Source of the DNA: an uncultured Muribaculaceae bacterium
Lineage (GTDB): Bacteria > Bacillota_I > Bacilli_A > RF39 > UBA660
Assembly: GCA_964473455.1 (NCBI GenBank)
Contig: CAYYQX010000001.1
Coordinates: 51,086-115,085, forward strand
Reading direction: 5' to 3'
Length of the DNA stretch: 64,000 nucleotides
Shown: positions 59,711 through 62,083 of the stretch, piece by piece
Layout: each line of letters opens with the position of its first letter
Numbering within the stretch: the first letter of the stretch is position 1
Program-made: the position numbers and the translations under genes
Notes under the pieces: model-generated
Database searches by the model: none
The model's input: the letters and a program-made list of their open reading frames with translations, nothing else
Told to the model about the DNA's origin: nothing

Positions 59711-62083
59711 TTAATTGGCGTATACCGTTTTTCCATTAGCTGTTTCTGCTGCCGAAAAGTTCATGACTGTAACCCACGTGCTGTTATTACTTGATACATA
59801 TGTAACATTAGAATTATATGTTCTTCCATCAGCAAAATAATGCCATACTGTTATTTGATTTAAATCATAAATTTGTCCTAAGTCTATTGTAATACATTGT
59901 AAACTGCCGGCCGTTAATTCGGCATAATTTGCCGAAGTTGCACTATTGTCTGTTATATAGGCAACATTAGTGATTGCAGATGTTCCTGTAGCCGTTTTCC
60001 CACCAGCTAAATTATTTCCGTCTTTAATAGCTTTTAATTCCACCCAGTGATTTCCTGCGTTTACTGTACTTCCATTAATACAATCTTTCACATATCTAAC
60101 ATTATCTAATATTCCAACTTGTAAAGGTGCTGCATCATCCGAAATGTACGTTATTTTAGCATATCCGTCACCAGATTTAGCATAATTAGATGTTGCTGTA
60201 GTGGATACACTAGTTGTCGAATATGTTAATGTAGATGCTACTGATGAAGTTGTACAATTATAACAATACATTGCTTTTGTTATAGCTCCATACGTTGATA
60301 GTAAAGTGTTTGCAATATAGCTTGAGCCTCCACCGCCTGCTCCGTTATTTCCACCGCCTCCACCAGAAGATGCACCATACCAACCTGCTCCACCACCACC
60401 AATTGCTTCATTCGACCAAGATGCGCTTCCTCCAGTACCAAAGCTGCCAACTCCAGATCCACAACAAGTATTAAATCTTGCTCCACCGGCAGTCTGTGTT
60501 CCACCTAACCCATAATCTTCACCAGCTCCATTAGTGCCTGATATTCCACCACCACTTCCGCCAGCAAAATTGTTACCCTTGCCGCCTCCACCAGATGCAA
60601 CAATTAACACGTTAGCTTGGCTTGCAGATAGAGTTGATAATAGGCCTGCAACTTTTGCTATGTGTGTAGCTCCACCACCACCATAAACATTCCCTGTAAT
60701 AGTTCCTCCACCGTTATAGCCTCCTGTTCCGTTCGCAGTAGTTCCTCCAACATAAACATAGATAACTTCATCTTTATTTAAATATACTACACCTGTTGAA
60801 TAAGCACCATATCCACCAGATCCGCCACCTTGCGCTCCCCATACTTCAAGTTTATAATAGCCGTTATATTCAGCTGTAAAAGTTTGAACAGCCCCTGTAT
60901 ATGCAAACTCTGCTAATTGTTCCTTAACACATGGGGTTTCAATAACTTTATTTGCTATATTACCCGCATAATCCCTAACCAACAAATTAACGTTCGCAGT
61001 ACTTTCACTTAAACAAGAAACGTATCCAATATTTGACGTTTGCCAAATATTTCCACCATCAAAAGAATATTCTTTTATTCCAGAGCCAGAATCTGCTGCG
61101 GTTATCGTATATAAAACATTATCACCTTCAACACTTGTTGCATAAGTAAAAGTTGGGTTTGTTGTATCAACAACAGTAATGTTAAGCTCATAACTGCCAG
61201 TATTCCCACTACTATCTGTTGCTTTATAAATAACTTTTTTCGTACCTATTATTTTAGACGAAAAAGAACCCATTATTACTGGACTTATTTCTTCACTACT
61301 GTTATCCGTAATTGTTACTTCAGGAAAAGTATAACTGTCTGTTGCTTCAATAGTAATACTACCCCCACTACAAGAACTACATGTAATAACAGGCGCGGTT
61401 GTATCAACAAATTTCAATTTAATTATAACTGTTGCCGTATGTGAGATTGATTCGGCATCTGTGTAACTTGCTGTATAAAATATTGAATACGAGCTAATAA
61501 CATTTGGCGTAATATTGCTTGAATCAACAGTAAAGTTAATCAATACATTATTTTTCTTAATAATTCTTTGTACAGATAATGCATTCCCATTAGGATCAGC
61601 TGCCGTAACACTTCCTATTAAAGTTTCTATTGCCCCTACTGTACTAACACTTCCAATTTCCGCACTAACATTAGAAGAATTATAAGAAAAAATAGGCGCC
61701 AAACTGTCGTTTGTTCCTTCATCCACCTCATAAACATAATCATTATTCTCATAAGAAATATTTATAAACGTAGTATCAGGGAAAGATAAATTAGTCATTG
61801 GATTTATAACATCTTCAATGTATCCCAAGTCTTTTAACTCACCAAGTGTTAATACATAAGGCCAATAAGCATTATTCTCTAAAATAATTTTATTTTCTTT
61901 TTCTGTTGCCCAAACTCTTGTAGCCACTTCAATTGATAACAATTGCTTTTGATAAAGATCTGTTTTAGCATTATTTAAAATAGATATAACATTTGGAATT
62001 ATAAGGAATAATAAAAGAGCTATTATAACAATAACCGAAAGAAGCTCAATTAAAGTAAATCCCTTTTTATAAGAACTTATCAT
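59711..62083 (-). CDS. giant modular prepilin-type protein: class III signal, pilin head, Ig-like repeats, ALK/LTK-type glycine-rich module, discoidin-like C-terminal domain
   Basis: MISSYKKG|FTLIELLSVIVIIALLLFLIIPNV. Repeats are delimited by VDTTAPVI and VDTTNPTF (bacterial Ig-like, HYR/DUF5011 style, e.g. KVIYKATDSSGNTGSYELNITV). Gly-rich module FAYTGAVQTFTAEYNGYYKLEVWGAQGGGSGG...GGYNGGG...VASGGGG...GGGGAGWYG...GGGGSSYI...GDGYAKITY. C-terminus NVRYVKDCINGS...NHWVELKAI...LQCITIDLGQIYDLNQITVWHY...STWVTV. Confidence 0.8.
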   Translation of the reverse strand: MISSYKKGFTLIELLSVIVIIALLLFLIIPNVISILNNAKTDLYQKQLLSIEVATRVWATEKENKIILENNAYWPYVLTLGELKDLGYIEDVINPMTNLSFPDTTFINISYENNDYVYEVDEGTNDSLAPIFSYNSSNVSAEIGSVSTVGAIETLIGSVTAADPNGNALSVQRIIKKNNVLINFTVDSSNITPNVISSYSIFYTASYTDAESISHTATVIIKLKFVDTTAPVITCSSCSGGSITIEATDSYTFPEVTITDNSSEEISPVIMGSFSSKIIGTKKVIYKATDSSGNTGSYELNITVVDTTNPTFTYATSVEGDNVLYTITAADSGSGIKEYSFDGGNIWQTSNIGYVSCLSESTANVNLLVRDYAGNIANKVIETPCVKEQLAEFAYTGAVQTFTAEYNGYYKLEVWGAQGGGSGGYGAYSTGVVYLNKDEVIYVYVGGTTANGTGGYNGGGTITGNVYGGGGATHIAKVAGLLSTLSASQANVLIVASGGGGKGNNFAGGSGGGISGTNGAGEDYGLGGTQTAGGARFNTCCGSGVGSFGTGGSASWSNEAIGGGGAGWYGASSGGGGGNNGAGGGGSSYIANTLLSTYGAITKAMYCYNCTTSSVASTLTYSTTSVSTTATSNYAKSGDGYAKITYISDDAAPLQVGILDNVRYVKDCINGSTVNAGNHWVELKAIKDGNNLAGGKTATGTSAITNVAYITDNSATSANYAELTAGSLQCITIDLGQIYDLNQITVWHYFADGRTYNSNVTYVSSNNSTWVTVMNFSAAETANGKTVYAN

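Follow-up and report, generated by a model that had tools for sequence, protein, structure and literature searches.

A putative modular type IV pilin with an Ig-like stalk, an ALK/LTK-type glycine-rich domain and a discoidin-like C-terminus in an uncultured bacterium

What does a prepilin of 790 residues do with about 665 residues of cargo? The question is raised by one open reading frame (ORF) in a stretch of 64,000 nucleotides (hereafter the window; contig CAYYQX010000001.1, positions 51,086 to 115,085) from an uncultured bacterium placed by GTDB in the RF39 lineage. The ORF begins with ATG and occupies 59711 to 62083 on the minus strand, the plus-strand frame across the same interval being packed with stop codons. 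An earlier interpretation made from the letters alone (the sequence-only reading) had called a modular prepilin here; its ORF of 790 residues stands, with the strand corrected to minus, and all of the peptide strings it quoted are present in the translation. The cargo consists of three beta-sandwich domains, one glycine-rich domain (GRD) and one CBM32/discoidin-like module. We think it rather probable, with moderate confidence, that the protein is a modular minor type IV pilin, that is, a pilus-borne adhesin, most probably at the filament tip.

The N-terminus, MISSYKKG/FTLIELLSVIVIIALLLFLII (the slash marks the predicted cleavage site), has a hydrophilic leader of eight residues ending in glycine, Phe at +1, Glu at +5, and a tract of 21 residues that is hydrophobic apart from Glu+5. 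A class III signal peptide has been defined by a short hydrophilic leader ending in Gly or Ala, a hydrophobic tract of ~21 residues and Glu at +5 (PMC9934059); leader, Glu+5 and tract all fit this definition, and we therefore take the N-terminus to be a class III signal peptide. Two profiles confirm the prepilin motif with Glu+5 that had been read by eye: N_methyl (PF07963) scores 24.2 bits against a Pfam cut-off of 21.2 over residues 5–27, and the NCBIfam family IV_pilin_GFxxxE (TIGR02532) scores 23.6 bits, above its cut-off of 16.3.

The signal leads into what is predicted to be a whole pilin. In the AlphaFold2 (AF2) model of the full protein, made with 46 aligned homologues and having a mean predicted local distance difference test score (pLDDT) of 85.2, a 53-residue alpha1 helix (residues 8–60) is followed by a small beta-sheet head (residues 76–121, with strands at 76–79, 106–112 and 115–121; pLDDT about 78–90). 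Prediction and homology thus suggest the “lollipop” fold of pilins, an alpha1 helix with a globular head, where the sequence-only reading had seen a pilin-head-like region. Residues 5–123 align nearly end to end with stand-alone pilins of 122–146 residues from related metagenome-assembled genomes (MAGs; loci L068, L079, L080, L054 and L062), one of which (L079, 13044–13451) lies 1.5 kb from pilB. Because the alignment takes in whole stand-alone pilins, the first 125 residues are a complete pilin and the remainder is cargo. Raynaud et al. (2021) define a modular pilin as an N-terminal IPR012902 motif or pilin module joined to at least one extra domain whose signature is not specific to type IV filament biology (PMC8179133); with N_methyl, HYR and ALK_LTK_GRD all above their Pfam cut-offs, the protein belongs, on its sequence, to this class.

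The most distinctive part of the cargo is the GRD. Its profile, PF12810, formerly Gly_rich and now carrying the name ALK_LTK_GRD, matches residues 407–647 with 92.8 bits against a cut-off of 24.5 (E = 4.4e-26), spanning profile positions 7–243 of 243. A second AF2 model, of residues 385–790 (pLDDT 90.9, predicted TM-score (pTM) 0.76), was compared with the PDB by Foldseek: all 21 matches with E ≤ 1e-3 are GRD/TG domains of ALK or LTK, including invertebrate ALK, with E-values between 1.8e-7 (the best, 7nx1) and 8.8e-6 and a probability of 1.00. The full-length model also retrieves ALK/LTK GRD structures, likewise with a probability of 1.00. In a single-sequence phmmer search of PDB sequences, by comparison, no ALK or LTK chain appeared and the only matches were weak ones to pilins at the N-terminus. 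The sequence-only reading had named this very family, recalling the accession PF12810 correctly, and would have dropped it for want of any hidden Markov model (HMM) or structural match; both kinds of match were obtained.

In the model the GRD has beta strands at either end and a pLDDT mostly above 90. Residues 497–603 (~105 residues), the candidate stretch for a lattice of polyglycine-II helices, have no regular structure by DSSP but are modelled with a pLDDT that for the most part exceeds 85, and hardly any of their glycines vary. The predicted architecture agrees with the TG-domain fold of ALK/LTK, a TNF-like beta-sandwich with a glycine-rich subdomain inserted. In a set of 117 non-redundant GRDs, conservation reaches at least 90% in 52 columns, 36 of them glycine, and the inter-glycine stretches are variable. 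The domain is often repeated: the top 120 homologues carry one copy (15 proteins), two (84), three (18) or four (3). The GRD also bears a highly conserved “MYCYNC” motif.

The C-terminal module, which the sequence-only reading had called discoidin-like, can be assigned at the superfamily level. Unlike the N_methyl, HYR and GRD matches, which all lie far beyond chance, its own score for F5_F8_type_C_2 (PF22633) stays below the cut-off of 27.8 bits, both in the whole protein (22.5 bits, residues 725–785) and as an isolated domain (26.7 bits). Its homologues do better: 25 of 30 match PF22633 (best 2.8e-20) and 16 of 30 match PF00754, and a profile of the domain built from 29 sequences finds 13 matches in the PDB, every one of them a CBM32, discoidin or F-type-lectin structure (best E 2.2e-4). 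A Foldseek search of the viral models in BFVD gives matches at about 4e-12 to a protein of Bacillus phage CP-51 annotated as a putative tail protein and to the JL tail fiber protein (rmsd, the root-mean-square deviation, 1.7 Å over 137 columns, 34% identity), as well as one to a Bordetella phage “coagulation factor 5/8 type domain protein” at 1.5e-5. The sequence evidence supports a divergent CBM32/discoidin-like module, at the level of the superfamily and not as a certified Pfam member. An exhaustive search of representatives counts 1547 proteins with the domain, some with as many as 10 copies, where a word-indexed homologue search had given 2 matches. Particular to the domain are a conserved N-terminal strand, NVRY.KDC.NGS..NHWVE, and a pair of invariant cysteines, Cys668 and Cys730, which may form a disulfide.

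Between the pilin and the GRD, the AF2 model has three beta-sandwich domains (about 126–226, 227–306 and 307–386). For the “two or three” Ig-like repeats of the sequence-only reading, Pfam, AF2 and Foldseek together give three beta-sandwich domains, with boundaries at ~226 and ~306 that coincide with VDTTAPVI and VDTTNPTF. HYR matches residues 226–304 with 24.0 bits against a Pfam cut-off of 21.7, and homologues bear PF16403, Bact_surface_Ig-like; Ig-like domain 3 has a weak OmpL47-type match (E 0.003). With Foldseek, the stalk finds tandem-Ig matches in the PDB to cadherin, an RTX adhesin and SraP at E about 1e-6. The profiles and the predicted beta-sandwiches support a HYR/bacterial Ig-like stalk.

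How might these parts work together? The prepilin would insert in the membrane, a prepilin peptidase would cut after Gly8 and methylate Phe, and a PilB-type type IV filament machine would take up the pilin module. The size of the protein, 80 kDa, rules out a backbone subunit, so that a low-abundance subunit is left, most probably at the tip, a position for which the modular pilins PilB and PilC of Streptococcus sanguinis would be the model: PilB (vWA) and PilC (lectin, binding glycans) have both been modelled at the filament tip, and in that species modular pilins at the tip are established as binders of proteins or glycans (PMC8179133, PMC9934059). The Ig-like stalk would keep the GRD and the CBM32-like module clear of the filament for ligand binding; glycans or surface polymers, whether from the host, from other microbes or from the gut environment, would be the likeliest ligands. 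Within the GRD, the invariant glycines would form a rigid framework, with specificity residing in the variable stretches that separate them. In the PHROGs database, the GRD matches phrog_7388, phrog_5811 and phrog_1589, many phage proteins carrying GRDs, and the C-terminal module matches phrog_21973, “tail protein”; this presence of both cargo modules among phage proteins fits a binding role. That phage tail proteins have modules in common with the pilin also hints that receptor-binding domains have passed between phages and the pili of their hosts.

The strongest evidence for GRD cargo on pilins of a type IV filament comes from relatives, not from this genome. In two related loci, L048 and L067, a gene for a GspE/PilB-type ATPase adjoins GRD genes. 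The GRD-linked ATPase has 450–520 residues and, against E. coli GspE, scores 354–370 bits. It is highly conserved in gut Bacilli and “Acholeplasma sp.” MAGs: the 120 best clusters are 72–100% identical, and some are named PilB or PulE. In five further loci (L076–L080), the gene for the PilB-type ATPase stands next to, and is divergent from, two small prepilin genes (164–171 aa) without Pfam matches: prepilin 1 (MKKKFKRG/FVLAETVGV..., 169 aa) and prepilin 2 (MKKG/FTVVELIASFTL...GLKTQLLNKQA..., 167 aa). The counterpart of prepilin 2 in L067, MKKNG/FTVVELLITVSL...GIKTKLLTKQA, shares with it the N-terminal motif FTVVEL...G.KT.LL.KQA, is 540 residues long, against 167–171 in other relatives, and has a GRD at its end. 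Here, therefore, the GRD has been grafted on a pilin that belongs to the pilB gene cluster. L048 has the same synteny as L076–L080, with a GRD protein in that pilin's position.

Several results weigh against the pilus reading or against the domain assignments under it. None of the genes in the 64 kb of the window encodes a T2SSE ATPase, a platform protein or a prepilin peptidase. Searches of related loci (about 1.2 Mb) with E. coli HofB, GspE, HofC, GspF and GspO as seeds, which are weak detectors, found no PilC or PilD even at E ≤ 10 and retrieved ATPases only (L048, L067 and a Tad-like one in L017); a scan of the related loci for the G.GD.K prepilin-peptidase motif, a single motif and also a weak detector, found nothing. 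The pilin gene is surrounded by housekeeping genes, outside any pilus operon, and an exact-sequence look-up of the 790-residue protein of this uncultured organism finds no record elsewhere. On the structural side, the TM-scores to ALK/LTK are modest (0.29–0.42) and the rmsd is about 9 Å, from which we conclude that the fold family is common to both, the details of the predicted GRD differing substantially. Finally, the sequence-only reading had staked its discoidin-like C-terminus on a match to a jelly roll of this kind: HMM and profile matches were obtained, and Foldseek of the 385–790 model against the PDB gave no significant discoidin or CBM32 structure, so that the C-terminal assignment leans on the profiles and the phage models.

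The isolation of the gene and the lack of assembly genes in the window would suit a membrane-anchored surface adhesin, which would use the class III signal for export and anchoring, cleaved or not, stand on its Ig-like stalk and never polymerise. We consider this unlikely, though it is the main rival of the modular pilin. It draws further strength from the homologues: N-termini of prepilin type are found in 74 of the best 120, and in the remaining ones the GRD stands behind plain membrane anchors or SipW/TasA-like signals, from which it follows that GRD cargo can do without a pilus. Large pilin-like proteins are, moreover, more numerous per genome than a single tip complex would seem to need, and a paralogue of 488 residues in the window has lost Glu5. 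An anchored adhesin does not, however, account well for the first 125 residues, which are a complete pilin module with full-length homology to stand-alone pilins, conserved in positional orthologues despite changing cargo; the query and most homologues strictly retain Glu5 and the Gly-1/Phe+1 site; and GRD cargo is present on a pilin of the pilB-adjacent pair.

The modular pilin is seen as a carrier at the orthologous locus. Two positional orthologues, P0001 in L075 and P0002 in L074 (a 1.24-Mb contig), stand in the order of second large prepilin, GRD pilin, SpoU, RimM and TrmD, and in L075 an alpha/beta-hydrolase gene precedes the orthologous pilin genes as it does in the window. The flanking proteins are 49–74% identical and the pilin 41–42%. 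P0001 combines a GRD with three CBM32-like copies, and P0002 has more than one GRD copy. As the pilin module is kept while the cargo swaps, we regard it as a carrier with exchangeable effector modules.

There are three large pilin-like genes within the window itself. The product of the 488-residue paralogue also has a GRD and a CBM32-like module, and the pair therefore behaves as a cassette. Its N-terminus, MKKNNKG/FVITGFLYSILVIF (starting FVITG), is prepilin-like but degenerate, without Glu5. The tip pseudopilin GspK is known to have lost Glu5, and by analogy the paralogue may mark a tip-initiating subunit. The third gene encodes a prepilin of 651 residues, of which the cargo (~600 aa) has no Pfam match beyond N_methyl and contains two “vRPxxxL” motifs (GVRPVIYL and NVRPTFNL); it is part of a scattered pilin-gene repertoire of the genome. 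On this picture, the 790-residue protein would belong to a set of alternative adhesins for the pilus that the genome encodes.

The relatives of the protein come nearly all from MAGs of uncultured gut Bacilli or “Tenericutes”, with several paralogues per MAG; they include Hadza and UMGS bins, Coprobacillus sp. CAG:605, Firmicutes CAG:582, Mycoplasma sp. CAG:956 and CAG:776, names that we take to stand for RF39-like lineages. Beyond the single protein, it is possible, though we hold this with considerable doubt, that GRD-bearing pilins make up an extensive, lineage-specific and so far undescribed set of adhesins displayed on the pili of uncultured gut Bacilli with reduced genomes: many alternative “tip” pilins per genome, scattered among housekeeping genes and built by shuffling receptor-binding modules shared with phage tail fibres, namely the CBM32-like module and the GRD as a rigid polyglycine scaffold presenting variable loops. 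If this is true, the pilus context would offer the first functional clue to the bacterial GRD as a module for ligand binding, and it would bear on the evolutionary origin of the ligand-binding domain of ALK/LTK.

Much less probable than an anchored adhesin is a pseudopilin-type component or substrate of a secretion- or competence-type filament, with a role in DNA uptake or protein secretion and not in adhesion. ComGC and GspG are the best NCBIfam family matches of the N-terminus, and Com pili are reportedly the most widespread type IV filaments among monoderms (PMC7212644). The two matches are, however, confined to residues 6–56 and far short of the family cut-offs (ComGC 32 against 75 bits, GspG 32 against 89 bits), the cargo consists of binding-type modules common to phage tail proteins, and in relatives it is the GspE/PilB-type ATPase described above that goes with GRD pilins. 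Least probable of all, to the point that we reject it, is a phage-derived gene for a prophage tail fibre or receptor-binding protein: the phage matches of both modules (the PHROGs families, CP-51 and JL) speak for domain exchange and not for a prophage, given housekeeping neighbours in synteny conserved with relatives (alpha/beta-hydrolase, SpoU methylase, RimM, TrmD, Obg), no phage genes seen among the genes of the window, and a prepilin N-terminus, which tail fibres do not have.

Table 1. Positions of the protein's parts and of related or neighbouring features in the window.
Feature	Position	Strand	Basis or remark
Prepilin leader MISSYKKG	62060–62083	minus	Sequence; PF07963 and TIGR02532 above cut-off; predicted cleavage after Gly8
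Pilin module (predicted), aa 9–125	61709–62059	minus	AF2 model; alignment to stand-alone pilins; ComGC/GspG and PDB pilin-chain N-terminal matches
Beta-rich domain 1, aa 126–226	61406–61708	minus	AF2 secondary structure; only insignificant Pfam matches
HYR/Ig-like domain 2, aa 227–306, starts VDTTAPVI	61166–61405	minus	Pfam HYR; homologues; Foldseek
Ig-like domain 3, aa 307–386, starts VDTTNPTF	60926–61165	minus	AF2; OmpL47-type; Foldseek tandem-Ig
GRD, aa 390–648, Pfam ALK_LTK_GRD, 26% Gly	60140–60916	minus	PF12810; AF2; Foldseek; conservation
CBM32/discoidin-like (galactose-binding-domain-like) module, aa 660–790	59714–60106	minus	Profiles; homologues; phage models
Strong Shine-Dalgarno sequence AAGGAG	62091–62096	minus	7 nt 5' of the ATG at 62083; within the 3' end of the hydrolase gene
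Alpha/beta-hydrolase gene	62067–62777		Upstream of the pilin ORF; 17-nt overlap with it
GRD + CBM32-like paralogue, 488 aa	39321–40787	minus	PF12810 1.3e-39; identical C-terminal module type
Second large prepilin, 651 aa, MKKG/FTLIELLAVIV	49738–51693	minus	Perfect class III signal; between Tex and SecDF

The protein-coding content of the window consists of housekeeping genes throughout, among them those for MurB, MurG, a Mur ligase, FtsQ and a PASTA kinase, and these mark the organism as a walled monoderm. The pilin gene has a G+C content of 35.8% against 29.3% for the window, which we tentatively attribute to its glycine (GGN) codons. Scans around the gene found promoter-like sites without excess and no terminator 3' of it; the gene is probably co-transcribed with its neighbours (Table 1).

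Like PilB and PilC of S. sanguinis, the protein has a class III signal, a small pilin module, binding-type cargo grafted at the C-terminus and a monoderm host. It differs from them in having five cargo domains instead of one, drawn from other families, and in the place of its gene, alone between housekeeping genes and not in a pil operon. Among the 264 modular-pilin architectures catalogued by Raynaud et al. (2021), Dataset S1 lists “IPR012902 - PF12810” for 2 proteins, a version with three PF12810 copies for 1 and “IPR012902 - IPR000421” for 1, as catalogue entries without analysis, and Dataset S2 lists a PilY1 with PF12810 (PMC8179133). These PF12810 entries pair a prepilin motif with ALK_LTK_GRD as the protein does here; unlike it, none joins the GRD to a F5/8-type-C-like module or an Ig-like stalk. 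The sequence-only reading, which knew of no described pilin with a Gly_rich plus discoidin-like cargo, was therefore too strong: the prepilin–PF12810 pairing is listed and is abundant in metagenomes. Our literature search found no paper that connects pilins with an ALK-type GRD or that treats PF12810 in bacteria.

The solved GRDs of the human receptor tyrosine kinases ALK and LTK (7nx1, 7nx4, 7mzy, 7lrz, 7ls0, 7n00 and 9g5i, and invertebrate ALK, 7lir) share PF12810 with the protein, are the only significant solved-structure matches of the 385–790 model, and likewise consist of a beta-sandwich with a large glycine-rich insertion without regular secondary structure. They differ in sequence (14–18% identity, up to 20% with the full-length model) and in setting: the bacterial protein has no EGF-like module, transmembrane kinase or cytokine (ALKAL) partner, and bacterial GRDs often occur in tandem, one to four per protein. 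Mimicry of host ALK/LTK for the binding of ALKAL cytokines was considered and set aside, in view of the ~14–20% identity, the low TM-scores and the wide occurrence of GRDs in environmental phages.

A likeness in design is offered by the phage adhesin gp38, whose glycine-rich motifs pack into a polyglycine-II sandwich, the receptor being bound through hypervariable loops (PMC12892980). In gp38 (S16, PP01; the tip of T2-type tail fibres), as in the GRD, conserved glycine-rich motifs alternate with variable segments, and the position on the fibre is distal; gp38 is, in contrast, absent from the PDB matches and homology was not detected, which leaves an analogy of design. For the C-terminal domain, CBM32/discoidin modules are the sole PDB profile matches (among them the chitosanase discoidin domains 2rv9/4zxe, and 4a3z, 2j1a and 4lks from Clostridium perfringens glycosidases); it differs from them in scoring 1–5 bits under the Pfam cut-off, in its own N-terminal strand and in its invariant cysteine pair.

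The carrier-plus-cargo principle and the prepilin–PF12810 pairing are thus already known, and the protein does not represent a new kind of system. What appears to be new is the five-domain cargo of Ig-like stalk, GRD and CBM32-like module, the extent of the family among uncultured gut Bacilli and its cassette-like shuffling at the orthologous locus, and the grafting onto a pilB-adjacent pilin together with the module sharing with phage tail proteins. Modular pilins show how simple type IV filaments gain many functions, and those studied so far carry vWA and lectin modules (S. sanguinis) and a few others. A GRD, for which no bacterial function is known, on a pilin carrier and beside a sugar-binding-like module leads to a testable hypothesis, namely that the GRD is a binding scaffold. 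The family is, furthermore, strongly expanded in uncultured gut Bacilli of reduced genome, whose surface structures and attachment to host or microbes are almost uncharted.

Some observations on the relatives and on the window complete the picture. The GRD proteins without a prepilin N-terminus (P0093, P0096, P0099, P0103–P0113, P0050, P0056, P0060 and others) begin with the signals GYAAYNTTINIYGN, AAVAYMAPKINGTE or LIGTFAIDSxITEGNS, which we presume to resemble SipW-dependent signal peptides of the TasA/camelysin type; if so, one kind of cargo would be sent along two separate routes of fibre formation or secretion. Contigs binned to Bacteroidota also hold close relatives of the GRD/CBM32-like cassette, one in a Phocaeicola vulgatus bin (L039) and two in Muribaculaceae bins (L041 and L044); the L041 protein is 55% identical over residues 584–789 and has a prepilin-like N-terminus, MNKKRG/FALIEAIF. 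These cassettes reflect either mis-binning or inter-phylum transfer.

A dispersed organisation of pilin genes like that of the window recurs in L022, where genes for a pilin of 140 aa (2295–2717), one of 158 aa (7333–7809) and a GRD pilin of 463 aa (9512–10903) each stand singly among housekeeping genes (EngB, Der). The window has, in addition, a block of ORFs without Pfam matches (16557–17384 on the plus strand; 17401–17883, 17920–18996 and 19011–20561 on the minus strand). The product of the last of these (516 aa), MERRNES/FTLKDVIFNLLFIMLFVFILL, has a degenerate pilin-type look, with Ser at −1 and Asp at +5, and the 358-residue product of the same block has a Sec-type signal peptide.

The PilB-type clusters of the relatives, conserved in “Acholeplasma sp.” and gut Bacilli MAGs (L076–L080, e.g., L076 6878–11362; L048 7994–14248; L067 3–5048), consist of the PilB-type ATPase, the two divergent prepilins and a protease-like protein with PDZ and Lon_C (S16) domains; in L076–L080 and L048, a “Gate” (nucleoside-recognition) membrane protein lies between the prepilins and the protease. 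The PDZ/Lon_C protein always adjoins the PilB-type cluster, no PilC or PilD being nearby, and could be part of the filament system. A Tad-like set in L017 (17029–20700) comprises a weak RcpC/CpaB-like protein, a T2SSE ATPase of 380 aa (2.8e-29) and, downstream, two proteins of 297 and 264 aa without a convincing family match; this set would give the lineage a second class of type IV filament. Adjoining the pilB cluster of L067, finally, is a tandem array of genes of about 390–430 aa (8527–16232) with at least three GRD proteins (8527–9747, 9755–10918 and 11466–12749), a local expansion of the GRD family.

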